Source: Bdellovibrionales bacterium
Lineage (GTDB): Bacteria; Bdellovibrionota; Bdellovibrionia; Bdellovibrionales; UBA1609
Direction of reading: 5' to 3'
Assembly: GCA_965261545.1 (NCBI GenBank)
Contig: CBDHDF010000007.1
Location: 192,001 to 256,000 of the forward strand
DNA: 64,000 nucleotides
Both the position numbers and the translations under genes were made by a program. The notes under the pieces were generated by a model that saw nothing but the letters and a program-made list of their open reading frames with translations, searched no databases and was not told where the DNA came from. Of this stretch, positions 15,334 through 40,573 are shown piece by piece. Each line of letters opens with the position of its first letter. Position 1 is the stretch's first letter.

Positions 15334-18300
15334 TCATTGGGGAGTGACAGTGGCAGATCTAGAGATAAGACTGTTGCTATCAGAGCTATTCACCGCTCGT
15401 ACTTGAAAGGTGTAAAGTGTCCTATTGGTAAGAGAAGTCACCACGTAGTATGTTCCATTTCTTTGATTTGGAGCACTATTTGGAATATCCTCCCAACTTC
15501 CGTACCCTTGTGTACCTGCTGTTTTTTTTCGATACTGATGTTTTATAATGGGAAATCCACCATCACTTGTTGGCGGCTGCCAGGTTAAAAAAGTTCTGCC
15601 ATCTCTAGGGTTTGCAATGAGGTTACTAGGAGATGGGAAGGTTAAATTCTGGGTTGTTTCTGGTGTGACAGTTACACTGGAGGAATCGCTTTCATTGGTG
15701 ATAATATTCACCGCTCGCACTTGAAAGCTGTAGCGTGTTCCGTTGGTGAGAGAAGTCACCAGGTAGCTTATTCCATTGGATTCACTGGGAGCACTCATTG
15801 GAATATCCTCCCAATTTTCGTACTGTTGTGCATTTTCTTCTTTTTTTCGATACTGATGCTTTGTGATGTAATGTCCACCATCACTTATCGGAAGCTGCCA
15901 GGTTAAATAAGCTCCGCCATTTCTGGGGTTTGCGATGAGGTTTCTAGGAGGTGCTAAACTCTGGGTTGTCGCTGGTGTGACAGTTGCGCCGGAGGGACTG
16001 CTTTCATGAGTGCTATTCACTACTCGCACTTGAAAGCTGTAACGGGTCCCATTGGCGAGAGAAGTCACCCAGTGGCGTTGTCCATAGGATTCATTGGGAG
16101 CACTATTTGGAATATTCTTCCAACTTTCGTATTGCTGTGCACCTTCTGCTTTTCTTCGATACTGATGCTTTGTGATGGGAATTCCACCGTCACTTGTTGA
16201 CGGCTGCCAGGTTAAATAAGCTCCTTGATTCCGAGGGTTTGCGATGAGGTTTCTAGGAGATGCTAAACTCTGGATTGTTGCTGGTGTGACAGTTGCAACA
16301 TTGGAGGAACGACTTTCATTGGCGTTATTCACCGCTCGCACTTGGAAGTTATAAATCGTCCCGTTGGCGAGAGAAGTCACCAGGTAGCTTATTCCATTGG
16401 ATTCACTGGGAGTACTCGTTGGAATATTCTTCCAATTTCCGTACTGTTGTGCATTTTCTTCTTTTTTTCGATACTGATGCTTTGTGATGGAAATTCCACC
16501 GTCACTTGTTGACGGCCGCCAGGTTAAATAAGTTCCTTGATTCCGAGGGTTTGCAATGAGATGAGTGGGAGACGAAACAGCTAAACTCTGGGTTGTCGCT
16601 GGTGTGACAGTTGTAACATTGGAGGAACGGTTTTTATTGGCACTATTCACCGCTCGCACTTGGAAGTTATACATCGTCCCGTTGGCGAGAGAAGTCACCA
16701 AGTAGCTTATTCCATTGGATCCACGGGGAGCACTCGTTGGAATATTCTTCCAATTTCCGTACTGATGCTGTGCGCCTGTTGTTTTTTTTCGATACTGATG
16801 TCTTATGATGGAAAATCCACCATCACTTGTTGATGGCTGCCAGGTTAAATAAGCTCCTTGATTCCGAGGGTTTGCGATGAGGTTTCTAGGAGGTGCTAAA
16901 ATCTGAGTTGTCGCTGGTGTGACAGTTGCAACATTGGAGGAACGACTTTCATTGGCGTTCACCGCTCGCACTTGAACATTGTAGCGTGTCCCATTGGTGA
17001 GGGTCACCCAGTGGCGTTGTCCATTGGATTCATTGGGAGCACTATTTGGAATATCCTTCCAACTTTCGTATTGCTGTGCACCTGCTGCTTTTTTTCGATA
17101 CTGATGCTTTAATATGGGAGTTCCACCATCACTTATTGAAGGCTGCCAGGTTAAATAAGTTCCTTGATTCCGAGGGTTTGCGATGAGATGAGTTGGAGAT
17201 GAAAAGGCTAAACTCTGGGTTGTCACTGGGGTAACAGTTACACTGGAGGGATCGCTTTCATTGGCGTTATTCATCGCTCGCACTTGAACATGATAGCGTG
17301 TCCCATTGGTGAGAGAAGTCACCAGGTAGCGTATTCCATTGGATTCATTGGGAGCGCTCATTGGAATATTTTTCCAATTTCCGTATTGCTGTGCACCTGC
17401 TGCTTTTTTTCGATACTGATGTTTTATGATGGAGGATCCACCATCACTTATCGAAGGTTGCCAGGTTAAATAAGCTCCGCCATTTCTGGGGTTTGCGATG
17501 AGGTTTCTAGGAGGTGCTAAACTCTGGGTTGTCGCTGGTGTGACCGTTGTAACATTAGAAGAACGACTTTTATTATTGTCACCATTCATCGCTCGCACTT
17601 GAACATGATAATGTGTTCCATTGGTGAGGGTCACCCAGTGGCGTTGTCCATTGGATTCATTGGGAGCACTATTTGGAATATCCTTCCAACTTTCGTACTG
17701 CTGTGCACCTGCTGCTTTTTTTCGATACTGATGCTTTAATATGGGAGTTCCACCATCACTTATTGAAGGCTGCCAGGTTAAATAAGTTCCGCCATTTCTG
17801 GGGTTTGCGATGAGGTTTCTAGGAGGTGCTAAACTTTGGGTTGTCACTGGGGTAACAGTGACACTGGAGGGATCGCTTTCATTGGCGTTATTCATCGCTC
17901 GCACTTGAACATGGTAGCGTGTCCCATTGGTGAGAGAAGGTACTAGATAGCCTATTCCATTGGATTGATTGGGAGCACTATTTGGAATATCTTTCCAACT
18001 TCCGTACTGTTGTGCACCTGCTGCTTTTTTTCGATACTGATATTTTATAATGGGAATTCCACCGTCACTTATTGAAGACCGCCAGGTTAAATAGGCTTCA
18101 CCATCTCTAGGGTTTGCGATAAGGCTTCTAGGAGACCCTAAAATCTGGATTGTCGTTGGTGTGACAGTTGCAACATTGGTTGAACGATTCTTATTGGCAC
18201 TGTTTACTACTCGCACTTGAAAAGTGCAAGGCTGCCCATTGGTGAGAGGAGCGACAAAGTAGCGCATTCCATTGGATTGATTGGGAGCACTATTTGGAAT

Positions 18301-19194
18301 ATCTTTCCACCTTCCGTACTGTTGTGCACCTGCTGCTTTTTTTCGATACTGATGTTTTATAATGGGAACTCCACCGTCATTTATCGAAGACTGCCATGTT
18401 AAATAGGCTCCTTGGTTCCTAGGGTTTGCCATGAGGTTTCTAGGGAGTGCTAAACTTTGGGTTGTCGCGGGTGTGACAGTTGCAACATTGGAGGAGTGAC
18501 TTTCATTGGCGTTATTCACCGCTCGCACTTGAACATTGTAACGTGTCCCGTTGGTGAGAGAAGGTAGTACTAGATAGCCTATTCCATTGGATTGATTGGG
18601 AGCACTCATTGGAATATCTTCCCAACTTCCGTACTGCTGTACACCTTCTTCTTTTTTTCGATACTGATGCTTTGATATGGGAGTTCCACCGTTATTTACT
18701 GAAGGTTGCCAGGTTAAGTAAGCTCTTTGATTCCTAGGGTTTGCAATGAGGTTTCTAGGGGCTGAGGGGATGGTTGAAATTCGAGAGGTTGCATTTGGTG
18801 TCACTATGGTAGCATTCGAAGGAGTGCTTACAGTGCCAAAAGCATTCTCTCCCCGCACTTGAAAGTTGTAGCGTGTCTCGTTGGTGAGACCCATGACGGT
18901 GAATATTGCTTCATGAATGTCCCCGTAGGAACTGTTGGGAATATCCACCCAGCTTTCGTACACTTCTGATTCTACTTTTTTTCGATATTGATGTTTTGTA
19001 ATACTTTCTTTTTGATTACTAGTGGAAGTTCTCCAAGACAAAGTTGCCTGTCCATCTCCGGGTGCTGCCGTCAAGGTATATTTGATTTTTATCGGCTTCT
19101 CAGAAATGTAAGACTTGTCTTTACTACAACCCAAGCATAAAAAATATAAAAGTATAACAATAGATACACTAAAATTCTTTATTAAATTATTCAT
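15334..19194 (-). CDS. Surface lipoprotein with about 12 tandem fibronectin type III domains
   Basis: Lipobox LCLGC. Twelve ~100-aa repeats PRNLIANP...LTW...HQYRKK...LTNGTRY.FQVRAVN. Confidence 0.9.
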   Translation of the reverse strand: MNNLIKNFSVSIVILLYFLCLGCSKDKSYISEKPIKIKYTLTAAPGDGQATLSWRTSTSNQKESITKHQYRKKVESEVYESWVDIPNSSYGDIHEAIFTVMGLTNETRYNFQVRGENAFGTVSTPSNATIVTPNATSRISTIPSAPRNLIANPRNQRAYLTWQPSVNNGGTPISKHQYRKKEEGVQQYGSWEDIPMSAPNQSNGIGYLVLPSLTNGTRYNVQVRAVNNANESHSSNVATVTPATTQSLALPRNLMANPRNQGAYLTWQSSINDGGVPIIKHQYRKKAAGAQQYGRWKDIPNSAPNQSNGMRYFVAPLTNGQPCTFQVRVVNSANKNRSTNVATVTPTTIQILGSPRSLIANPRDGEAYLTWRSSISDGGIPIIKYQYRKKAAGAQQYGSWKDIPNSAPNQSNGIGYLVPSLTNGTRYHVQVRAMNNANESDPSSVTVTPVTTQSLAPPRNLIANPRNGGTYLTWQPSISDGGTPILKHQYRKKAAGAQQYESWKDIPNSAPNESNGQRHWVTLTNGTHYHVQVRAMNGDNNKSRSSNVTTVTPATTQSLAPPRNLIANPRNGGAYLTWQPSISDGGSSIIKHQYRKKAAGAQQYGNWKNIPMSAPNESNGIRYLVTSLTNGTRYHVQVRAMNNANESDPSSVTVTPVTTQSLAFSSPTHLIANPRNQGTYLTWQPSISDGGTPILKHQYRKKAAGAQQYESWKDIPNSAPNESNGQRHWVTLTNGTRYNVQVRAVNANESRSSNVATVTPATTQILAPPRNLIANPRNQGAYLTWQPSTSDGGFSIIRHQYRKKTTGAQHQYGNWKNIPTSAPRGSNGISYLVTSLANGTMYNFQVRAVNSANKNRSSNVTTVTPATTQSLAVSSPTHLIANPRNQGTYLTWRPSTSDGGISITKHQYRKKEENAQQYGNWKNIPTSTPSESNGISYLVTSLANGTIYNFQVRAVNNANESRSSNVATVTPATIQSLASPRNLIANPRNQGAYLTWQPSTSDGGIPITKHQYRRKAEGAQQYESWKNIPNSAPNESYGQRHWVTSLANGTRYSFQVRVVNSTHESSPSGATVTPATTQSLAPPRNLIANPRNGGAYLTWQLPISDGGHYITKHQYRKKEENAQQYENWEDIPMSAPSESNGISYLVTSLTNGTRYSFQVRAVNIITNESDSSSVTVTPETTQNLTFPSPSNLIANPRDGRTFLTWQPPTSDGGFPIIKHQYRKKTAGTQGYGSWEDIPNSAPNQRNGTYYVVTSLTNRTLYTFQVRAVNSSDSNSLISRSATVTPQ

Positions 19195-19734
19195 GATTTT
19201 AACTCCTAGCCTATATACCTTTGTAGTAATATCTGAATCATCTTTTTCTCGTTTGTTAAATTTTAAGACTTCTCATCAAAAATCGTCTCAATTTCATTAC
19301 TCGGCCATAAGTTAAGTAAACTTTAGAGCGTGTCCTTTGACTAAGCGCATCCAACCTGGAAAAACCAAAAACAGAACCAAAATCTAGGATGATAAAAAAG
19401 GTTGTTATGACACCAAAAATGGCCGGAAATTATGGAGGTTCACGACTCCCAGTCGCAGATCAAATCATCAAAGGAGTTACGTACCTGAATTCCCCAGCGT
19501 TTTGAAAAAGAAGATTTTTCTCAACTAAAAATTATCGTAACATTCATGGGGGCGCCTTGCTTCCCCACCCACGCCCATGAATCTTTCTAGGCCCCCACTT
19601 CTTTGCACGAAGCAACTCGGTGGACAGCTTCGCTGGTCTATATAATTGGCCTCTTTTAGTTACTCTGGACTTTTGATGGTATTTTTGTCATGTATGATTC
19701 CGATACAATAAAGGATAAAGCAATAACATTATTG

Positions 19735-19921
19735 GAAGGTGATAAGATGAGTGGCCGTTGAATAGATTGGTAATTTTAATTCCGTGAAGTAACATGGTCT
19801 TGAGCTTTGGATCGAACCCACGCATGTACCTGCACTCTGAGTGTATGGACGTATAGTAAGTTGACCTATTTTCGCTTTAGAATTTATGGCAAAATCCCAA
19901 GGCTCTAGTTTTATCACCTTC
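19735..19921 (+). ncRNA. Putative bridge RNA of the IS110 element
   Basis: Closing stem GAAGGTGATAA/TTATCACCTTC followed by T7. Inner stems GGCCGT/ATGGTC and GAGCTTTGG/CCAAGGCTC. Loop segments match the target and the donor junction (see findings). Confidence 0.75.
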
Positions 19922-19949
19922 TTTTTTTCTAACAGAAAGGAGGAGTCAT

Positions 19950-21150
19950 GTGGATATTATTTATAGTTCTGTTTGTGGAATAGATGTTCATCAACATATG
20001 TTGATGTGTACGATTGTCAAAGTGGAAGACGGTAAGAAGAAGTTTTTCACAAAAGAGTTCAAGAATTTTCCAAAAAATTTTCCTAGAATGCGCTCTTGGA
20101 TGAAGCCACATAAGGTTGAGAGAGTTCTTTTTGAGAGCACAGGGATTTATTGGAATTCTTTATACGATGATTTGACAGAAAAAGGTTATGAAGTAGATGT
20201 TATCAATGCCTTTCATGTCAAAAATATTACTGGTAAAAAAACTGACGTGTTGGATAGCCAGTGGATTGCAGAGCTTGGTGCTTGTGGTCTTCTAAGAGCT
20301 AGCTTCATTCCTCCACGTGAGATTCGTTCTATTAGACTTTTGGCTCGTTATCGTACAAAAACGATCCGCCAAATATCTTCGGAACAAAATCGTATGTATA
20401 AGGTTCTTGAATATTCAGGCATTCGTTTAACCTATGCAATGTCTAAAGCTGACTGCGTATCTGGTATGGCCATGATTCGTGCCATAGCTAATGGAGAGAG
20501 ATCAGTTTCTAAATTGATGTCTCTTGCCAGAGGGTCTTTACGTCAAAAGACCGAAGAATTTTCTTACGCCCTGTCGGGAAAGATGACGGAAGAAAATCGT
20601 TTTGTTCTTCAACGCATTCTTGATCGAATAGATTTTTTGAAAAAAGAATGCTCTCAAATTGAAGAAGAACTTTTCATTCGTATGAAACCCTATGAAAGGC
20701 AGTGGCATCTACTCCAGACTATACCTGGAATTGACGAATTAAGTGCAGCGCTTTTGATTGCAGAAATAGGAGGCAATGTGAAGTCTTTTAAAAATAAAGG
20801 AAATTTTTGCTCCTGGATGGGGATTTGCCCATCCAATAATGAGAGCGCAGGAAAAAAAGTCTTCACGAACGAGGAAAGCGAACACATATGTGAAATCGTT
20901 GGTATGTGAGATGGCCAATAGTGCTATTAAGACGAATTCACAATTCAAAGGCAAATACCAATCACTTGTTATAAGGCGTGGGCACAAGAGATCAGTGATT
21001 GCCGTTGGTCACAAAATGATGGGAGTTGTTTATTCAGTCATAAGTAATGACACCCCCTACAAAGACCCTGGAATTGACTATGAAAAGCTCATGGTGAAAA
21101 AAAATGCACCAAGGTGGATTAGAGCGTTAAAAAAGTATGATTTCATGTAA
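19950..21150 (+). CDS. IS110 DEDD recombinase split by a +1 frameshift at A7 (20852-20858)
   Basis: GIDVH, ESTGIYW, KTDVLD (DEDD), LLQTIPGI, NESAGK. Continues in another frame as KSSRTRKAN...AVGHK. About 399 aa if fused. Confidence 0.9.
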
Positions 21151-21238
21151 TGTAGGATGATTTAAAAACTCGGACATTTGAAAAAATTCGAAGAACGGAT
21201 AGTGGATTCGTGCGTCCAAACTACCCCGGAGATTCATA

Positions 21239-22953
21239 GTAACTATTCAGGGTGTGCCGCATTAATTCGAACAATTTTTTTAAAAAAAGTATAAAAATTC
21301 TTGACAAGTTTTTGAAGCAAACGACCTCTTTCATTTGTTCTTTATCGAATATGTTCCTGCATATGCCTTAAACTCTCTGAGAGCCATAGTATTGAAAGAT
21401 TGTGAAACATAGGTCGCGGGGGGCACTTCTCATTCCTTTTGCTTCTTAGAACGAATCCTAGTGCATTTTTTTTAATGAAAAAAAGGCATGTTAATATTTT
21501 CATAAGGTAAGTATGAAAATAGAAAATATTGACGTGTCTTCAGCCATAAATAAAATCAGGAAGCTTCTTAAGAAAGAGAAGTCCCTTTCTCCCGCTTTTA
21601 TTGTGGCCATTGAGTTGTTGATCAAAATCATCACTATTCTAGTAAATCAAAAAAAATTAAATAGTCAAAACAGTAGTATTGCCCCTTCTCAAGATCCGAA
21701 TGGCCCTAAAAAGAAACCTAAGGAAGAAACTGGTAAGAAGCCAGGAGGACAACCCGGACACGAAGGAGCTACTTTAAAACCCGTGGATACTCCAGACAAG
21801 GTGGAGTTCATTTCTATTAATAAAGAGGAACTTCCTCCAGGTGATTACATTTCTTCTGGAGTTGAAAAGCGTCAAGTATTTGAGGTAGACCTTTCTGTGC
21901 ATGTCACGGAGTATCAAGGAGAAATCCTCGAAGACCAAGATGGGAATCAGTGGGTTGCAGGTTTTCCAGAAGGAATCAATAACCCAACTCAATATGGCCC
22001 TTCTGTGAAAGCTCACTCAGTTTATATGTCCCAGTTTCAGTTAATCCCTCATCTTCGAGTCGCAAGTTACTTTAATCAATGGGGTCTATCGCTTGCTGGA
22101 TCTACGGTACACAATTTTAACAAATCTGCCTTTGAGGCTCTGGAAGCTTTTGAGGAGTGGGCAAAGGAAACTCTTCTGAACTCACCTTTGATTCATGCTG
22201 ACGAAACTGGAGTGAATGTTAATGGGAAGAGGCTGTGGTTTCACCTCTTGTCCAATGATACTGTGGTTCTCTATCAGGTGGACGAAAAAAGAGGCGCAGA
22301 GGCTATGGATCGCATGGGAATTCTTCCAAAATACACAGGGATTGTTTGTCATGACCATTGGAAACCTTATTATACATATACTTCCTGCATTCATGCCCTT
22401 TGCAATGCGCACCATTTAAGGGAGCTTCAAAGAGCTTGGGAGCAAGATGATCAAAAATGGGCAAAAGAAATGAAGTCTCTTTTAGAGACAATAAACAAAG
22501 AGGTGCACGATACGCAGAACCAATGCCTTTCACAAGACCGAATTGAATATTACAAAGAGAAATATCGAAATATTCTCTTCGAAGGGGAAAAGGAATCTCC
22601 ATTAATGGAGAGGACAGAGAAAAAAAAGAAGGGAAAGGTTAAACAATCCAAATCTAGAAATTTACTAGATCGACTGAGAAACTTTGAAGATGATACCTTG
22701 CTATTTATGAAGGACCCCATAGTTCCATTTACGAATAATATAGCAGAAAATGATCTGAGAATGACCAAAGTTCAGCAGAAAATATCTGGGTGCTTTCGTT
22801 CGTTGATGGGAGCCAAGACATTTTGTAGAAACCGAAGCTTTCTCCTGACTTGCCAGAAAAATGGCATAGAACCTAAAGATGCTCTAAATATGCTATTTCA
22901 AGGAAAACTTCCCTCATTTATGACTCGAATTCGCCCACCCCCTGAATAGTTAC
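21239..22953 (+). mobile_element. IS66-family element (single-ORF, ISBst12-like), complete
   Basis: IRs GTAACTATTCAGGG / CCCTGAATAGTTAC. 8-bp TSD AAATTATC at 19529-19536 and 24662-24669, outside the two IS110 copies. Confidence 0.93.
21513..22949 (+). CDS. IS66 transposase (TnpC-like)
   Basis: NSQNSSIAPSQD, KPGGQPGHEG, HADETG, CHDHW, CNAHHLREL, PFTNNIAENDLR, KISGCFRS. Confidence 0.95.
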   Translation: MKIENIDVSSAINKIRKLLKKEKSLSPAFIVAIELLIKIITILVNQKKLNSQNSSIAPSQDPNGPKKKPKEETGKKPGGQPGHEGATLKPVDTPDKVEFISINKEELPPGDYISSGVEKRQVFEVDLSVHVTEYQGEILEDQDGNQWVAGFPEGINNPTQYGPSVKAHSVYMSQFQLIPHLRVASYFNQWGLSLAGSTVHNFNKSAFEALEAFEEWAKETLLNSPLIHADETGVNVNGKRLWFHLLSNDTVVLYQVDEKRGAEAMDRMGILPKYTGIVCHDHWKPYYTYTSCIHALCNAHHLRELQRAWEQDDQKWAKEMKSLLETINKEVHDTQNQCLSQDRIEYYKEKYRNILFEGEKESPLMERTEKKKKGKVKQSKSRNLLDRLRNFEDDTLLFMKDPIVPFTNNIAENDLRMTKVQQKISGCFRSLMGAKTFCRNRSFLLTCQKNGIEPKDALNMLFQGKLPSFMTRIRPPPE

Positions 22954-23041
22954 TATGAATCTCCGGGGTAGTTTGGACGCACGAATCCACTATCCGTTCT
23001 TCGAATTTTTTCAAATGTCCGAGTTTTTAAATCATCCTACA

Positions 23042-24247
23042 TTACATGAAATCATACTTTTTTAACGCTCTAATCCACCTTGGTGCATTTTTTTTCACCA
23101 TGAGCTTTTCATAGTCAATTCCAGGGTCTTTGTAGGGGGTGTCATTACTTATGACTGAATAAACAACTCCCATCATTTTGTGACCAACGGCAATCACTGA
23201 TCTCTTGTGCCCACGCCTTATAACAAGTGATTGGTATTTGCCTTTGAATTGTGAATTCGTCTTAATAGCACTATTGGCCATCTCACATACCAACGATTTC
23301 ACATATGTGTTCGCTTTCCTCGTTCGTGAAGACTTTTTTTTCCTGCGCTCTCATTATTGGATGGGCAAATCCCCATCCAGGAGCAAAAATTTCCTTTATT
23401 TTTAAAAGACTTCACATTGCCTCCTATTTCTGCAATCAAAAGCGCTGCACTTAATTCGTCAATTCCAGGTATAGTCTGGAGTAGATGCCACTGCCTTTCA
23501 TAGGGTTTCATACGAATGAAAAGTTCTTCTTCAATTTGAGAGCATTCTTTTTTCAAAAAATCTATTCGATCAAGAATGCGTTGAAGAACAAAACAATTTT
23601 CTTCCGTCATCTTTCCCGACAGGGCGTAAGAAAATTCTTCGGTCTTTTGACGTAAAGACCCTCTGGCAAGAGACATCAATTTAGAAACTGATCTCTCTCC
23701 ATTAGCTATGGCACGAATCATGGCCATACCAGATACGCAGTCAGCTTTAGACATTGCATAGGTTAAACGAATGCCTGAATATTCAAGAACCTTATACATA
23801 CGATTTTGTTCCGAAGATATTTGGCGGATCGTTTTTGTACGATAACGAGCCAAAAGTCTAATAGAACGAATCTCACGTGGAGGAATGAAGCTAGCTCTTA
23901 GAAGACCACAAGCACCAAGCTCTGCAATCCACTGGCTATCCAACACGTCAGTTTTTTTACCAGTAATATTTTTGACATGAAAGGCATTGATAACATCTAC
24001 TTCATAACCTTTTTCTGTCAAATCATCGTATAAAGAATTCCAATAAATCCATCCCTGTGCTCTCAAAAAGAACTCTCTCAACCTTATGTGGCTTCATCCA
24101 AGAGCGCATTCTAGGAAAATTTTTTGGAAAATTCTTGAACTCTTTTGTGAAAAACTTCTTCTTACCGTCTTCCACTTTGACAATCGTACACATCAACATA
24201 TGTTGATGAACATCTATTCCACAAACAGAACTATAAATAATATCCAC
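23042..24247 (-). pseudogene. IS110 recombinase with a 4-bp GGAT duplication and an A8 run
   Basis: ATCCATCC at 24047-24054 breaks ESTG-IYW; T8 at 23334-23341; R>C change (ENCF). Confidence 0.9.
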
Positions 24248-24275
24248 ATGACTCCTCCTTTCTGTTAGAAAAAAA

Positions 24276-24462
24276 GAAGGTGATAAAACTAGAGCCTTGG
24301 GATTTTGCCATAAATTCTAAAGCGAAAATAGGTCAACTTACTATACGTCCATACACTCAGAGTGCAGGTACATGCGTGGGTTCGATCCAAAGCTCAAGAC
24401 CATGTTACTTCACGGAATTAAAATTACCAATCTATTCAACGGCCACTCATCTTATCACCTTC
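24276..24462 (-). ncRNA. Putative bridge RNA, copy 2
   Basis: Same sequence as 19735-19921. Confidence 0.7.
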
Positions 24463-25133
24463 CAATAATGTTATTGCTTTATCCTTTATTGTATCGGAAT
24501 CATACATGACAAAAATACCATCAAAAGTCCAGAGTAACTAAAAGAGGCCAATTATATAGACCAGCGAAGCTGTCCACCGAGTTGCTTCGTGCAAAGAAGT
24601 GGGGGCCTAGATAAGATTCATGGGCGTGGGTGGGGAAGCAAGGCGCCCCCATGAATGTTACAAATTATCAAGAATAAAATATTATCAAAGTGGAATTATT
24701 CAATAGTTCCATCCTAAATTGAATTGTGAATTGTTCAACTTATTTTGACACACCTCCTTAGTTTTGGACCTAGTTCAAACTCTGGGGAATTCAATTACGT
24801 AACAAAGCAAGTTTCATATATAAATATACAAATGAGACAAGCACAAGAGACGTGATCTTTATTGAGACAAAATCAATTTTTACTAGACTTTGGTAGAATC
24901 CCTTAGTATCCTTAAAATTAAGAAGCAGCATGATAAAGATTAAGAAATATATATAAGAATACGAAACCAATAAGAATTACGAAATAAAATTAAAGACTCC
25001 ATGGACCGAAGGCTTTGACGAGTGGCCTAAGGGTCCTAGCAAAAGAAGAGAAGCGGCACAAGGAAGTGCTAAAGTAGAACGTATATGCAAAAGGAGGTGG
25101 CACGAAAAAATAAAGCTAACTTCGGGCAATTCC

Positions 25134-25226
25134 TTTCTTTGATCAAGGCAAACTAGGGGAAACACTAGGACGCAAAACTAAGGAGCTAAGGTCGTGGATG
25201 ACTAAGCTTGCCAGTTGCCAGAGAAA
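25134..25226 (+). promoter_or_regulatory. c-di-GMP-I (GEMM) riboswitch aptamer
   Basis: GGCAAA-CTAGGG-GAAA-CACTAG-GACGCAAAACT...CTAAG-GTCG/TGAC-TAAG...GCCAGTTGCC. P1 is TTTCTTT/AGAGAAA. GNRA loop and receptor are present. Confidence 0.9.
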
Positions 25227-34188: not shown

Positions 34189-34760
34189 AAGATCCTCCTC
34201 ATTGCTAACCTTTTGAGTTGCAAAAGGGAGGGACTCTGTGAGCTTAGTATCTATATCAGAAGAAGAGACTTCATTGTCTAGTATTTGAACACTCCCTGAA
34301 GATTGGTCACTTTTCATTGGCGACAACCTCCATATTGAAAGTGGGACATTTTAATTGGCGACGGCTTTAAGGGAAGCCTGTCTTCAAAAAGAAATTCCAT
34401 GAAAATTGAGGCAAATGTTGGAATCTTGTGGAATTTAAATACTTTAGAAAATGGGCACAGCCTAAACAGGCTTTTCTTGACTATATATTTAACCTCATTG
34501 AAATCCAGAAACAGTCTACAAATGAGAAATATGGAACCTGAATAGGCTGTCATGGAAGGACTCTCCAACACGGAGCCCCTTTCCAGGTCGACAAGAACCC
34601 AAAAGGAGTTCTTATCAGCTCGGAGCCTTTTTATGAGTAATATCAATTGATTATATGCGTCTCGGTTGACAATGCCAAAAATCACCATAGGTCCTCCTCT
34701 GAAAAGTGGCCACTTTTCATTGGCGACGGTGGGGCATTTTAATTGTCAGCTAACAAATAG

Positions 34761-36471
34761 TTACTATGAATCTCCGGGGTAGTTTGGACGCACGAATCCA
34801 CTATCCGTTCTTCGAATTTTTTCAAATGTCCGAGTTTTTAAATCATCCTACATTACATGAAATCATACTTTTTTAACGCTCTAATCCACCTTGGTGCATT
34901 TTTTTTCACCATGAGCTTTTCATAGTCAATTCCAGGGTCTTTGTAGGGGGTGTCATTACTTATGACTGAATAAACAACTCCCATCATTTTGTGACCAACG
35001 GCAATCACTGATCTCTTGTGCCCACGCCTTATAACAAGTGATTGGTATTTGCCTTTGAATTGTGAATTCGTCTTAATAGCACTATTGGCCATCTCACATA
35101 CCAACGATTTCACATATGTGTTCGCTTTCCTCGTTCGTGAAGACTTTTTTTCCTGCGCTCTCATTATTGGATGGGCAAATCCCCATCCAGGAGCAAAAAT
35201 TTCCTTTATTTTTAAAAGACTTCACATTGCCTCCTATTTCTGCAATCAAAAGCGCTGCACTTAATTCGTCAATTCCAGGTATAGTCTGGAGTAGATGCCA
35301 CTGCCTTTCATAGGGTTTCATACGAATGAAAAGTTCTTCTTCAATTTGAGAGCATTCTTTTTTCAAAAAATCTATTCGATCAAGAATGCGTTGAAGAACA
35401 AAACGATTTTCTTCCGTCATCTTTCCCGACAGGGCGTAAGAAAATTCTTCGGTCTTTTGACGTAAAGACCCTCTGGCAAGAGACATCAATTTAGAAACTG
35501 ATCTCTCTCCATTAGCTATGGCACGAATCATGGCCATACCAGATACGCAGTCAGCTTTAGACATTGCATAGGTTAAACGAATGCCTGAATATTCAAGAAC
35601 CTTATACATACGATTTTGTTCCGAAGATATTTGGCGGATCGTTTTTGTACGATAACGAGCCAAAAGTCTAATAGAACGAATCTCACGTGGAGGAATGAAG
35701 CTAGCTCTTAGAAGACCACAAGCACCAAGCTCTGCAATCCACTGGCTATCCAACACGTCAGTTTTTTTACCAGTAATATTTTTGACATGAAAGGCATTGA
35801 TAACATCTACTTCATAACCTTTTTCTGTCAAATCATCGTATAAAGAATTCCAATAAATCCATCCCTGTGCTCTCAAAAAGAACTCTCTCAACCTTATGTG
35901 GCTTCATCCAAGAGCGCATTCTAGGAAAATTTTTTGGAAAATTCTTGAACTCTTTTGTGAAAAACTTCTTCTTACCGTCTTCCACTTTGACAATCGTACA
36001 CATCAACATATGTTGATGAACATCTATTCCACAAACAGAACTATAAATAATATCCACATGACTCCTCCTTTCTGTTAGAAAAAAAGAAGGTGATAAAACT
36101 AGAGCCTTGGGATTTTGCCATAAATTCTAAAGCGAAAATAGGTCAACTTACTATACGTCCATACACTCAGAGTGCAGGTACATGCGTGGGTTCGATCCAA
36201 AGCTCAAGACCATGTTACTTCACGGAATTAAAATTACCAATCTATTCAACGGCCACTCATCTTATCACCTTCCAATAATGTTATTGCTTTATCCTTTATT
36301 GTATCGGAATCATACATGACAAAAATACCATCAAAAGTCCAGAGTAACTAAAAGAGGCCAATTATATAGACCAGCGAAGCTGTCCACCGAGTTGCTTCGT
36401 GCAAAGAAGTGGGGGCCTAGATAAGATTCATGGGCGTGGGTGGGGAAGCAAGGCGCCCCCATGAATGTTAC
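34761..36471 (-). mobile_element. IS110-family element, copy 3 (1711 bp; GGAT duplication; recombinase pseudogene 34853-36057; bridge-like RNA 36086-36272)
   Basis: Same ends as copy 1; ATCCATCC at 35857-35864. Confidence 0.95.
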
Positions 36472-36800
36472 ACATTTTCCATATTGGTGACTTTGGAAGT
36501 ATCCCAACCACTGACATCTGGGTTTGCCTTGATGGCTCCTAAAAACATACCTTTCATATCTTTAACCATAGAGGTGTCCCACCCACTTGTATCTGGATTT
36601 ACCTCAGCGGCATTTCGAAATAAATTCGCCATATCAACAACCTTGGAGGTATTCCAGCTACTTGTATTTGGATTTGCCTTGGTGGTCCCCAAAAACATAC
36701 CTCTCATATCTTTAACCATAGAGGTGTCCCAACCATTCGTATCTGGTATGGCTAAAACAGCTCTGTGAAACATATTTTTCATATTCGTAACAGCTGACAT
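36468..36800 (-). CDS. 110-aa DUF285/BspA-repeat ORF made by duplication
   Basis: WDTS.V.DM..MF repeats; GGAGG RBS; stop codon supplied by the IS GTAA. Confidence 0.5.
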   Translation of the reverse strand: MSAVTNMKNMFHRAVLAIPDTNGWDTSMVKDMRGMFLGTTKANPNTSSWNTSKVVDMANLFRNAAEVNPDTSGWDTSMVKDMKGMFLGAIKANPDVSGWDTSKVTNMENV

Positions 36801-36815
36801 ATTTCCTCCAAGGAC

Positions 36816-38522
36816 TTACTATGAATCTCCGGGGTAGTTTGGACGCACGAATCCACTATCCGTTCTTCGAATTTTTTCAAATGTCCGAGTTTTTAAATCA
36901 TCCTACATTACATGAAATCATACTTTTTTAACGCTCTAATCCACCTTGGTGCATTTTTTTTCACCATGAGCTTTTCATAGTCAATTCCAGGGTCTTTGTA
37001 GGGGGTGTCATTACTTATGACTGAATAAACAACTCCCATCATTTTGTGACCAACGGCAATCACTGATCTCTTGTGCCCACGCCTTATAACAAGTGATTGG
37101 TATTTGCCTTTGAATTGTGAATTCGTCTTAATAGCACTATTGGCCATCTCACATACCAACGATTTCACATATGTGTTCGCTTTCCTCGTTCGTGAAGACT
37201 TTTTTTCCTGCGCTCTCATTATTGGATGGGCAAATCCCCATCCAGGAGCAAAAATTTCCTTTATTTTTAAAAGACTTCACATTGCCTCCTATTTCTGCAA
37301 TCAAAAGCGCTGCACTTAATTCGTCAATTCCAGGTATAGTCTGGAGTAGATGCCACTGCCTTTCATAGGGTTTCATACGAATGAAAAGTTCTTCTTCAAT
37401 TTGAGAGCATTCTTTTTTCAAAAAATCTATTCGATCAAGAATGCGTTGAAGAACAAAACGATTTTCTTCCGTCATCTTTCCCGACAGGGCGTAAGAAAAT
37501 TCTTCGGTCTTTTGACGTAAAGACCCTCTGGCAAGAGACATCAATTTAGAAACTGATCTCTCTCCATTAGCTATGGCACGAATCATGGCCATACCAGATA
37601 CGCAGTCAGCTTTAGACATTGCATAGGTTAAACGAATGCCTGAATATTCAAGAACCTTATACATACGATTTTGTTCCGAAGATATTTGGCGGATCGTTTT
37701 TGTACGATAACGAGCCAAAAGTCTAATAGAACGAATCTCACGTGGAGGAATGAAGCTAGCTCTTAGAAGACCACAAGCACCAAGCTCTGCAATCCACTGG
37801 CTATCCAACACGTCAGTTTTTTTACCAGTAATATTTTTGACATGAAAGGCATTGATAACATCTACTTCATAACCTTTTTCTGTCAAATCATCGTATAAAG
37901 AATTCCAATAAATCCCTGTGCTCTCAAAAAGAACTCTCTCAACCTTATGTGGCTTCATCCAAGAGCGCATTCTAGGAAAATTTTTTGGAAAATTCTTGAA
38001 CTCTTTTGTGAAAAACTTCTTCTTACCGTCTTCCACTTTGACAATCGTACACATCAACATATGTTGATGAACATCTATTCCACAAACAGAACTATAAATA
38101 ATATCCACATGACTCCTCCTTTCTGTTAGAAAAAAAGAAGGTGATAAAACTAGAGCCTTGGGATTTTGCCATAAATTCTAAAGCGAAAATAGGTCAACTT
38201 ACTATACGTCCATACACTCAGAGTGCAGGTACATGCGTGGGTTCGATCCAAAGCTCAAGACCATGTTACTTCACGGAATTAAAATTACCAATCTATTCAA
38301 CGGCCACTCATCTTATCACCTTCCAATAATGTTATTGCTTTATCCTTTATTGTATCGGAATCATACATGACAAAAATACCATCAAAAGTCCAGAGTAACT
38401 AAAAGAGGCCAATTATATAGACCAGCGAAGCTGTCCACCGAGTTGCTTCGTGCAAAGAAGTGGGGGCCTAGATAAGATTCATGGGCGTGGGTGGGGAAGC
38501 AAGGCGCCCCCATGAATGTTAC
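36816..38522 (-). mobile_element. IS110-family element, copy 4 (1707 bp; recombinase 36908-38108 with A7 shift; bridge-like RNA 38137-38323)
   Basis: Same ends and ORFs as copy 1. Confidence 0.95.
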
Positions 38523-38851
38523 ACATTTTCCATATTGGTGACTTTGGAAGTATCCCAACCACTGACATCTGGGTTTGCCTTGATGGCTCCTAAAAACATA
38601 CCTTTCATATCTTTAACCATAGAGGTGTCCCACCCACTTGTATCTGGATTTACCTCAGCGGCATTTCGAAATAAATTCGCCATATCAACAACCTTGGAGG
38701 TATTCCAGCTACTTGTATTTGGATTTGCCTTGGTGGTCCCCAAAAACATACCTCTCATATCTTTAACCATAGAGGTGTCCCAACCATTCGTATCTGGTAT
38801 GGCTAAAACAGCTCTGTGAAACATATTTTTCATATTCGTAACAGCTGACAT
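38519..38851 (-). CDS. 110-aa DUF285/BspA-repeat ORF, second duplicate
   Basis: Same protein as 36468-36800. Confidence 0.5.
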   Translation of the reverse strand: MSAVTNMKNMFHRAVLAIPDTNGWDTSMVKDMRGMFLGTTKANPNTSSWNTSKVVDMANLFRNAAEVNPDTSGWDTSMVKDMKGMFLGAIKANPDVSGWDTSKVTNMENV

Positions 38852-38866
38852 ATTTCCTCCAAGGAC

Positions 38867-40573
38867 TTACTATGAATCTCCGGGGTAGTTTGGACGCACG
38901 AATCCACTATCCGTTCTTCGAATTTTTTCAAATGTCCGAGTTTTTAAATCATCCTACATTACATGAAATCATACTTTTTTAACGCTCTAATCCACCTTGG
39001 TGCATTTTTTTTCACCATGAGCTTTTCATAGTCAATTCCAGGGTCTTTGTAGGGGGTGTCATTACTTATGACTGAATAAACAACTCCCATCATTTTGTGA
39101 CCAACGGCAATCACTGATCTCTTGTGCCCACGCCTTATAACAAGTGATTGGTATTTGCCTTTGAATTGTGAATTCGTCTTAATAGCACTATTGGCCATCT
39201 CACATACCAACGATTTCACATATGTGTTCGCTTTCCTCGTTCGTGAAGACTTTTTTTCCTGCGCTCTCATTATTGGATGGGCAAATCCCCATCCAGGAGC
39301 AAAAATTTCCTTTATTTTTAAAAGACTTCACATTGCCTCCTATTTCTGCAATCAAAAGCGCTGCACTTAATTCGTCAATTCCAGGTATAGTCTGGAGTAG
39401 ATGCCACTGCCTTTCATAGGGTTTCATACGAATGAAAAGTTCTTCTTCAATTTGAGAGCATTCTTTTTTCAAAAAATCTATTCGATCAAGAATGCGTTGA
39501 AGAACAAAACGATTTTCTTCCGTCATCTTTCCCGACAGGGCGTAAGAAAATTCTTCGGTCTTTTGACGTAAAGACCCTCTGGCAAGAGACATCAATTTAG
39601 AAACTGATCTCTCTCCATTAGCTATGGCACGAATCATGGCCATACCAGATACGCAGTCAGCTTTAGACATTGCATAGGTTAAACGAATGCCTGAATATTC
39701 AAGAACCTTATACATACGATTTTGTTCCGAAGATATTTGGCGGATCGTTTTTGTACGATAACGAGCCAAAAGTCTAATAGAACGAATCTCACGTGGAGGA
39801 ATGAAGCTAGCTCTTAGAAGACCACAAGCACCAAGCTCTGCAATCCACTGGCTATCCAACACGTCAGTTTTTTTACCAGTAATATTTTTGACATGAAAGG
39901 CATTGATAACATCTACTTCATAACCTTTTTCTGTCAAATCATCGTATAAAGAATTCCAATAAATCCCTGTGCTCTCAAAAAGAACTCTCTCAACCTTATG
40001 TGGCTTCATCCAAGAGCGCATTCTAGGAAAATTTTTTGGAAAATTCTTGAACTCTTTTGTGAAAAACTTCTTCTTACCGTCTTCCACTTTGACAATCGTA
40101 CACATCAACATATGTTGATGAACATCTATTCCACAAACAGAACTATAAATAATATCCACATGACTCCTCCTTTCTGTTAGAAAAAAAGAAGGTGATAAAA
40201 CTAGAGCCTTGGGATTTTGCCATAAATTCTAAAGCGAAAATAGGTCAACTTACTATACGTCCATACACTCAGAGTGCAGGTACATGCGTGGGTTCGATCC
40301 AAAGCTCAAGACCATGTTACTTCACGGAATTAAAATTACCAATCTATTCAACGGCCACTCATCTTATCACCTTCCAATAATGTTATTGCTTTATCCTTTA
40401 TTGTATCGGAATCATACATGACAAAAATACCATCAAAAGTCCAGAGTAACTAAAAGAGGCCAATTATATAGACCAGCGAAGCTGTCCACCGAGTTGCTTC
40501 GTGCAAAGAAGTGGGGGCCTAGATAAGATTCATGGGCGTGGGTGGGGAAGCAAGGCGCCCCCATGAATGTTAC
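38867..40573 (-). mobile_element. IS110-family element, copy 5 (1707 bp; recombinase 38959-40159 with A7 shift; bridge-like RNA 40188-40374)
   Basis: Same ends and ORFs as copy 4. Confidence 0.95.

Follow-up and report, generated by a model that had tools for sequence, protein, structure and literature searches.

A predicted IS110-family bridge RNA whose donor loop covaries with a displaced site inside the left end of its element

Which DNA would be read by the two loops of an RNA encoded at positions 19735-19921 of the window (the whole 64,000-nucleotide stretch of Bdellovibrionales DNA that was analysed)? A first-pass annotation had proposed a bridge RNA there, with guide loops matching an end of IS66 and the circle junction of the RNA's own element. 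Bridge RNAs have been described before, and one more would be unremarkable in itself; the point of interest is the wiring of the donor loop. As argued below, the interval very probably encodes the bridge RNA of an IS110 element present in many copies, and one strand of its donor loop probably serves as a functional distal donor guide, both judgements being made from sequence.

The interval lies on the forward strand within the non-coding left end (~410 bp; the right end is ~90 bp) of an IS110 element that sits in an end of IS66. Both ends of this IS66 are capped by two IS110 copies in inverted orientation, and the capped IS66 is bracketed by its 8-bp direct repeat, AAATTATC (19529-19536, partner 24662-24669). 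Reading rightwards on the forward strand, the left target half GT (19537-19538), with which the left terminal repeat of IS66 begins on the outside, is followed by the left core dinucleotide AA (19539-19540, placed by junction comparison) and the IS110 left-end box (19541-19584). The right end (21230-21242) consists of the inverted repeat AGATTCAT, the donor half ATAGT (21236-21240) and the core AA (21241-21242). The IS66 body (21243-22949, forward strand) resumes with the right target half CTATTCA (21243-21249) and carries the transposase gene (21513-22949); the second, inverted IS110 copy (22950-24659, reverse strand) has an identical RNA gene at 24276-24462. Three further tandem copies, each with an identical RNA gene, lie at 34756-40573 on the reverse strand with a spacing of ~2051 bp. 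About 340 bp of host DNA is duplicated with each of these three, which suggests that left and right junctions were made at different sites; short flank duplications are also seen in a Methylomarinum relative.

Across the genome the element is represented by 35 right ends and 50 left-end anchors. The claim that IS66 ends are its target is borne out: 15 of the 33 IS66-type ends are occupied at the same AA, and the other 18 are free. Free ends read flank-GTAACTATTCAGGG, and the empty target is flank-GT-AA-CTATTCAG. The AA (or TT) core that had been proposed agrees with both element junctions and with the empty site seen in the free ends, which indicates a 2-nt core with no target duplication; it is confined to AA, because in the homologues L126 and L030 the -1 base of the right end differs from that of the left flank. 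A head-to-tail junction, CATAGTAACATT, occurs 10 times within the chromosome, so that its amplification by PCR would be no proof of circles. One IS110 insertion has landed in the sequence that specifies the donor guide of the element itself. The left junction GTAACATTCATGGGGG (19537-19552) looks like the interrupted IS66 end (compared with 21239-21254); the outermost sequence after insertion is therefore almost an IS66 terminal repeat again, and this may keep the capped IS66 mobile. By these sequence comparisons the element is a parasite of IS66 ends, parallel to IS4321 and IS5075, which reportedly target the terminal repeats of Tn21.

Reduced forms of the element accompany it. Mini-elements of ~105 bp keep the left end exactly through the box that contains the distal site described below and have neither RNA nor gene; they consist of the left box, 45 unrelated bases and ATTCATAGTAA, and several lie in variant IS66-like ends. 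Three were found in one count and further ones on C6, C11 and C2; the positions in G000 are C2:233520-233620, C3:20865, C6:3544, C10:576454, C11:725849 and C2:289234. Nine palindromic remnants of 49 bp (G000 C2:618571-618619, C6:99928-99976 and seven copies at C2:345400-383720) have the IS110 left box closed by GTTAC and flanked by 7-8 bp direct repeats; these are probably collapsed IS110-IS66-IS110 composites. At G000 C11:1028790-1028810 a left start is joined to a right end via a shared ATTCAT, an almost empty element. Within the window copy, a 65-bp piece of the left end with a TATAAT (19619-19683) is common to another repeat of ~40 copies, and the left end is ~150 bp longer than that of compact homologues. 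Elsewhere in the window, a 1286-aa protein (15334-19194, reverse strand) has about twelve repeats of 104 aa, which by eye we take to be fibronectin-type-III-like, and a c-di-GMP-I riboswitch (74.5 bits) lies at 25137-25222 on the forward strand.

The recombinase gene (19950-21150, forward strand) encodes a protein with PF01548 and PF02371 that matches NF033542 with 245 bits (cut-off 140). Its catalytic residues D12, E62, D99, D102 and S299, aligned with those of IS621, are conserved (a DEDD RuvC-like domain and the Tnp serine), and its fold matches 8WT6/8WT9 (TM 0.76 by target, 20% identity). The frame of the window copy is disrupted by a run of seven A near 20852. Among 35 copies the run has 7 A in 18, 8 in 3 and 9 in 14, and nine of the 35 encode the full 400 aa; in short-read contigs, all from one sample, 9 A were found in 4/4 runs. 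Since the short-read contigs are intact, the break is probably an assembly error of long-read origin. A frame break at the A-run (20851-20858) is seen in 21 of the 35 copies and also in the homologous proteins P0006, P0007 and P0016, and slippage control may operate there.

All the motifs named in the first-pass annotation are present where it had placed them, and most of its fold holds. The closing stem (19735-19745/19911-19921) has 11 Watson-Crick pairs with pair probabilities of 0.97-1.0 and can be extended to 14 bp (19735-19748/19908-19921); the T7 after it is present at 19922-19928, a possible terminator, with AGGAGG at 19938-19943. (A promoter and terminator scan gave no sigma-70 match in 19500-19990 and no terminator.) The stem that closes the second, donor-binding domain (19802-19905), GAGCTTTGG/CCAAGGCTC (19802-19810/19897-19905), has pair probabilities of 0.82-0.91, and the hairpin TGCACT/AGTGTA within that domain (19831-19845) has 0.81-1.0; the domain is a multi-loop, with a second hairpin region at ~19864-19892, beyond ATAGTAA. 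The loop-1 stem GGCCGT/ATGGTC (19753-19758/19794-19799), which closes the target-binding loop (19753-19799) around an inner hairpin at ~19768-19784, is the exception. In the single-sequence ensemble, where the other three of the four stems are likely, its probability is 0.03-0.04 and it costs 1.7 kcal/mol; it is nevertheless conserved: of 26 aligned sequences, 23-26 retain its first four pairs, and two-sided changes occur among them. The closing stem and inner hairpin are likewise conserved with two-sided changes in the 26-sequence alignment. None of 200 shuffled versions folds as well as the interval (z -2.79), and two-sided change is seen in 26 of the 29 consensus pairs of the RNA, which is structured and lies upstream of the gene on the same strand. 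The donor stem is longer than its shuffled mean in 25 of 27 elements. No Rfam family matches within the interval at gathering score.

How readily would such an RNA match its targets by accident? Within 3000 shuffles of the 187-mer, matches as good as those claimed arose for TGAATAG in 2.6%, for ATAGTAA in 2.2%, for GTAAC in 16% and for the 7/9 match of CACGCATGT in 37%. By these rates TGAATAG and ATAGTAA beat chance alone, GTAAC needs the homologues (which are supportive), and the match of CACGCATGT is what chance provides.

The homologues had to be taken from afar. Searches for DNA of relatives gave none with an identity between 49% and 99%; those at 65-80% are known as proteins alone (P0003-8, P0016), and a single-protein scan of genome contigs yielded 0 of 12 candidates. 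A DNA search of 401 same-phylum genomes gave merely short, chance-like matches, while matches were present in 13 of 61 related genomes, all others being at or below 41% identity. The homologous loci used are at 32-48% identity. A profile of 18 upstream regions matched 131 of 333 sequences, many of them copies of a few elements, and the close set holds 27 elements including the query, one representative per element. Tests compare each RNA with its own and with permuted partner DNA. An unbiased scan set each 5-nt RNA window near four anchors against each DNA window near three anchors in both orientations (13,152 window pairs); over the 27 elements it produced four diagonals alone, near-zero-variance artefacts aside. 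(The top match of the scan, z 14, is such an artefact, with 1.07 for own and 1.04 for cross partners.) Left flanks that are tandem or cut (L327, L031, L332, L032) and right flanks likewise (L327, L332) were excluded before counts, as were 4 of the 27 elements without a parsed right end and L325, without a left core; L032 was also left out of left-end tests. The duplicates L064 and L203 were kept out of the independent-pair and register tests and included in the distant-locus test. L030, with a repeat anchor off by one, counted 0 in the inverted-repeat covariation test.

The target loop comes before the donor loop, as had been claimed, and its guides do read in the orientation opposite to that of IS621: the 5' strand is complementary to the top strand, an IS1111-like order. 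The 5' target guide (19759-19767) comprises TGAATAG, complementary to CTATTCA of the right-flank top strand, and AT opposite the core, so that it pairs with one of the two core bases. Its match is 7/7 in the query and weak elsewhere, although covariation is detectable (3.00 vs 2.09 of 7 permuted, n 21, p 2e-4). In the query's genome 11 distinct non-IS66 right flanks match CTATTCA at 3.2 vs 1.8 of 7 (p 1e-4). The 3' side is the stricter. GTAAC had been put forward as the second guide, and GTAA (19789-19792), identical to left flank and core and pairing with the bottom strand, does track them: the last two flank bases agree in 22 of 22 elements, and overall the score is 4.14 vs 2.64 of 7 (n 22, z 7.2). 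The final C belongs instead to the handshake dinucleotide CA (19793-19794), which equals the first two bases of the left end; this handshake is perfect in 23 of 25 elements (1.92 vs 1.16, n 25, z 6.2).

The annotation had also placed the short guide on the variable flank, correctly: across 32 distinct left flanks of this element GT alone is specified (G in 29, T in 31), with no specificity beyond it. That the long guide faces the constant side is true of this element, but across the clade it is the 3' target guide that is strict. A Methylomarinum relative (G428, L042), with 62 matches in one genome, illustrates this: 47 distinct left flanks have C in 46 and T in 47, as in its own loop guide CTAA, its 5' target guide is weak (2.5 vs 1.8 of 7), and its 47 flanks hold no distal partner for that guide. 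With little specificity beyond CTAA, it is a good natural test system.

In the donor loop, ATAGTAA (19853-19859, forward strand) was rightly proposed as the 3' guide. It is identical to the right end plus core, and across the set the five bases before the second AA match the right end perfectly in 21 of 23 (4.91 vs 3.63 of 5, n 23, z 9.0). A donor-loop handshake is weak (1.00 vs 0.66 of 2, n 21, p 9e-3). The 5' strand of the donor loop is where the unexpected lies. Its bases ACCCACGCA (19816-19824) agree in 8/9 with ACCCACGCC (19567-19575, forward strand), a match reached by 0.4% of shuffles, and this distal site, set 21-28 bp in from the left terminus, shares its strand with the site of the other donor guide. 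In the close set the five variable bases of site and guide agree at 3.78 vs 2.83 of 5 (n 27, z 6.6). Since a distal site was first noticed by eye among the earliest homologues, the close set offers no independent test of it, and the match was for that reason retested on distant loci that had not been used. Anchored on ATGAAA, 23 distinct contexts (one of which, L200, is a near twin of a close element) score 3.0 vs 1.64 of 5 (z 7.1). Found without the repeat anchor, the site falls at +21 to +28 in 25 of 26 close loci and in 15 of the 18 distant loci that passed motif filters out of ~165 remaining, representing 16 distinct elements (z 6.3 and 8.0 for the two sets); in those 15 the best match falls at +21 to +24. 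Own against swapped partners in 16 phylogenetically independent pairs gave 13 wins, 0 losses and 3 ties (p 1.2e-4).

The match is mostly imperfect: 5/5 in 3 of 27 close elements and one mismatch in 18, with mismatches that are mostly not G-U wobbles, and L125 and L031 fail. In a sister group at ~30% identity it seems weaker (6/9 by eye). The homologues demonstrate covariation of the 5' donor guide with the distal site, and pairing between the two is what we infer from it. The possibility that the distal site is an alternative left end was tried and rejected: four truncated left ends near it show no guide-defined junction, and two of the four adjoin other repeats, of 38-40 copies.

Covariation might also be maintained by regulation, outside the recombining donor, if the complex damped its own promoter or if a left-end antisense RNA paired with the guide. 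Its placing in compact homologues would suit this: a GATACT/GAAACT hexamer that precedes the closing stem by 5-7 nt follows the site directly, which by eye occupies a promoter spacer. Antisense RNAs are described for ISPpu9 and ISPpu10 (PMC12288879). However, the site stays 21-28 bp from the core, whereas it can be close to the RNA start or far from it (~30 bp in compact homologues, ~165 bp in the query), the site is registered to an inverted repeat, and mini-elements that have neither RNA nor gene keep it. A regulatory role is therefore unlikely, and a functional donor guide is the reading that we prefer.

The geometry that the first-pass annotation had assumed, a canonical but flipped bridge RNA in which CACGCATGT (19819-19827) pairs beside the core at the left terminus and the distal match is incidental, fares worse. 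It has the 7/9 identity in the query and the precedent of IS621 (Hiraizumi 2024, as set out in the accessible part of PMC11208158), but the identity is one that, as noted, more than a third of shuffles (37%) reach. Homologues score 1-5 of 9, below their permuted partners (own 3.04 vs 3.34 of 9, z -2.5, n 25), none of nine shifted registers works (z -3.5 to 2.1), a free-register test for a core-adjacent 5' donor guide gives z 0.9 (n 42), and the distal match covaries in independent pairs; we consider this geometry very improbable.

It would be hard to maintain that the interval is merely a 5' leader or attenuator of the transposase mRNA, with matches due to shared descent or protein-binding motifs. 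The T7 and ribosome-binding site downstream of the closing stem would suit a leader, and the ISPpu9 leader does regulate translation; against this, the loops follow bases of the flank, which come from the host and do not descend with the element, in 22/22 cases at two positions and in 46/47 in one genome. Equally far-fetched is an unguided association with IS66, in which capped composites are mobilised by the IS66 transposase owing to the likeness of the IS110 left end, GTAACATTCATGGGGG, to the IS66 end GTAACTATTCAGGGGG: the resemblance is there, as are the 49-bp remnants, purely of IS110 left-end sequence with 7-8 bp direct repeats, but insertions occur at the same AA in either end of IS66 and in two variant ends, amid differing surroundings, and a resemblance to CTATTCA persists at sites outside IS66. 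Movement by the IS66 transposase could be an addition to guided insertion, not a replacement for it.

A displaced donor guide is the more telling for the company that it keeps. In 31 of the 37 elements (of 42) that score at least 7/9, the distal site ends exactly 3 nt before a GAAA repeat, and its distance to the core floats between 21 and 28 while the repeat distance is fixed. The GAAA repeat has its inverted counterpart in a TTTC that ends 5 nt short of the right core; in the query the left sub-terminal copy is ATGAATCT (19577-19584, forward strand), with its partner at 21230-21237. Covariation between the two copies extends over 6-10 bp (7.1 vs 4.7 bp, n 23, z 9.4). When natural junctions are folded, the repeat stem forms with probabilities of 0.99, 0.75-0.86 and 0.68-0.72 in three homologues and of 0.14-0.42 only in the query, where the stem is weak because a local palindrome competes. 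The core-to-repeat spacing ranges from 33 to 40 without a gap, and helical phasing is thus not suggested.

How might such a guide work? Cleavage in IS621 begins on the strand to which the 3' guides are bound, and handshake pairing follows strand exchange (Hiraizumi 2024, PMC11208158); IS110 excision releases one strand as a circle that is able to integrate, according to two preprints (10.1101/2025.10.25.684509; 10.64898/2026.08.31.748434). By comparison of the sequences, the target loop here reads GT-AA-CTATTCA, the IS66 end, with a 5' strand that complements the top strand and a 3' strand that complements the bottom one; the 3' donor guide reads the right end with the core, and the handshake follows the first two left-end bases. 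If the IS621 model applies, the non-coding strand, paired by the 3' guides, would be the one cut and exchanged. The 5' donor guide would read not the core-adjacent bases but the 9 nt of the distal site, which is separated by three bases from the left copy of the repeat; the right copy abuts the site of the 3' guide, and both donor guides are complementary to the same strand, the one presumed to be exchanged. The donor could then be a loop closed by the two inverted repeats, in which the returning arm replaces the opposite strand: the two guide sites, lying beside the stem on opposite arms, would stand in for a duplex bubble. The repeats may pair in a single-stranded circle, or a protein may hold a U-turn in duplex DNA; between these we lean slightly to the single-stranded donor. 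In such a stem-loop one arm would offer the core and 5 nt to the 3' guide and the returning arm 9 nt to the 5' guide, with 12-19 nt between the guides free, the target still being read as duplex DNA. A donor loop rewired in this way, for a stem-loop of single-stranded donor DNA, throughout a widespread subgroup of IS110 is a tentative proposal, to which we give rather less than even weight.

In its protein, core, target loop and handshake, all of which agree with IS621, the element is to all appearances an IS110-family bridge system. It shares with IS621 a DEDD + Tnp recombinase and an RNA upstream of the gene (Durrant 2024, PMC11208160, in its available text; PDB 8WT6), the succession of target loop and donor loop, a 2-nt core and a handshake after the 3' guide (PMC11208158, same limit), and two target guides on opposite strands that overlap at the core. 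Unlike IS621 it has an AA core, a 5' loop strand complementary to the top strand, dominant 3' guides, a multi-loop donor domain, a 5' donor guide that reads a distal same-strand site, a 400-aa protein and inverted repeats of 6-10 bp instead of 2-3 bp. The IS621/ISEc21 order, in which the 5' strand pairs with the bottom strand, is reversed in its target loop, and no register shows the core-adjacent covariation that a contiguous donor of the IS621 type would entail.

A top-strand match that precedes the bottom-strand match is the IS1111 order, the reverse of that of ISEc21 (Siddiquee 2024, PMC11187229) and IS621 (Durrant 2024, PMC11208160), and is found in the IS1111-group seekRNA elements ISEc11, ISPa11 and ISKpn4 (PMC11187229), as far as the accessible text of these papers goes. 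Sub-terminal inverted repeats and a multi-loop donor domain (the latter after Durrant 2024, PMC11208160) are further likenesses to that group, as is being aimed at another element's terminal repeat; unlike it, the RNA lies upstream instead of downstream, the protein has 400 instead of 330-350 aa and the left repeat begins 33-40 bp from the core, not ~7. There is a likeness in layout to ISPpu9 (PMC12288879): a 43-bp left box, needed for circles in ISPpu9, that on a reading of Table S2 ends in CAAACA, an inverted copy of a right-box motif stopping 5 nt before the core; a purine core and mini-elements (MITEPpu9). ISPpu9 has no junction promoter. The sections read describe no pairing of a guide with its A and B boxes, and the comparison is one of box layout alone; circles still formed when an internal palindrome was mutated.

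Copy-out by CazIS110-1 and IS621, in the available text of the preprints 10.1101/2025.10.25.684509 and 10.64898/2026.08.31.748434, offers single-strand excision, tandem by-products and half-match junctions that fit the tandems and odd junctions seen here; unlike our element, those in these texts have canonical donor guides. By eye, ISArsp3 (L334, 34% identity) is alike in having its right end ATGTC-AG repeated in the RNA and a distal GAAA repeat, with a 6/9 distal match 3 nt before that repeat; we found no mechanistic study of ISArsp3 in the literature. A sister IS110 group (L333, L337-L341; ~450 aa) inserts at AAAAAA sites, by eye in IS3-family elements, and has a long left box with a distal AGAAAC repeat. 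Literature searches brought up neither a distal donor guide nor an IS66-targeting bridge RNA, though figures, supplements or subscription papers could show one. Specifically, the available portions of Perry 2025, PMC13626964, PMC13604230, 10.64898/2026.08.14.744561 and 10.64898/2026.03.19.712850 do not mention a distal donor guide.

What the displaced donor guide suggests is a different way of gripping the element's own DNA. The solved IS110 structures are those of IS621 and ISCro4 alone, one distant branch with a contiguous duplex donor, and whether IS110 donors are single- or double-stranded is disputed in two preprints. A clade in which both donor guides match the exchanged strand would allow a direct test of donor strandedness. 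A survey of 32,190 bridge RNAs kept only runs at most 10 nt from the core on opposite strands (10.64898/2026.10.21.760802). Pipelines with such a filter would miss or mis-assign a distal guide, and for anyone reprogramming a recombinase of this kind, the distal site would have to change too.
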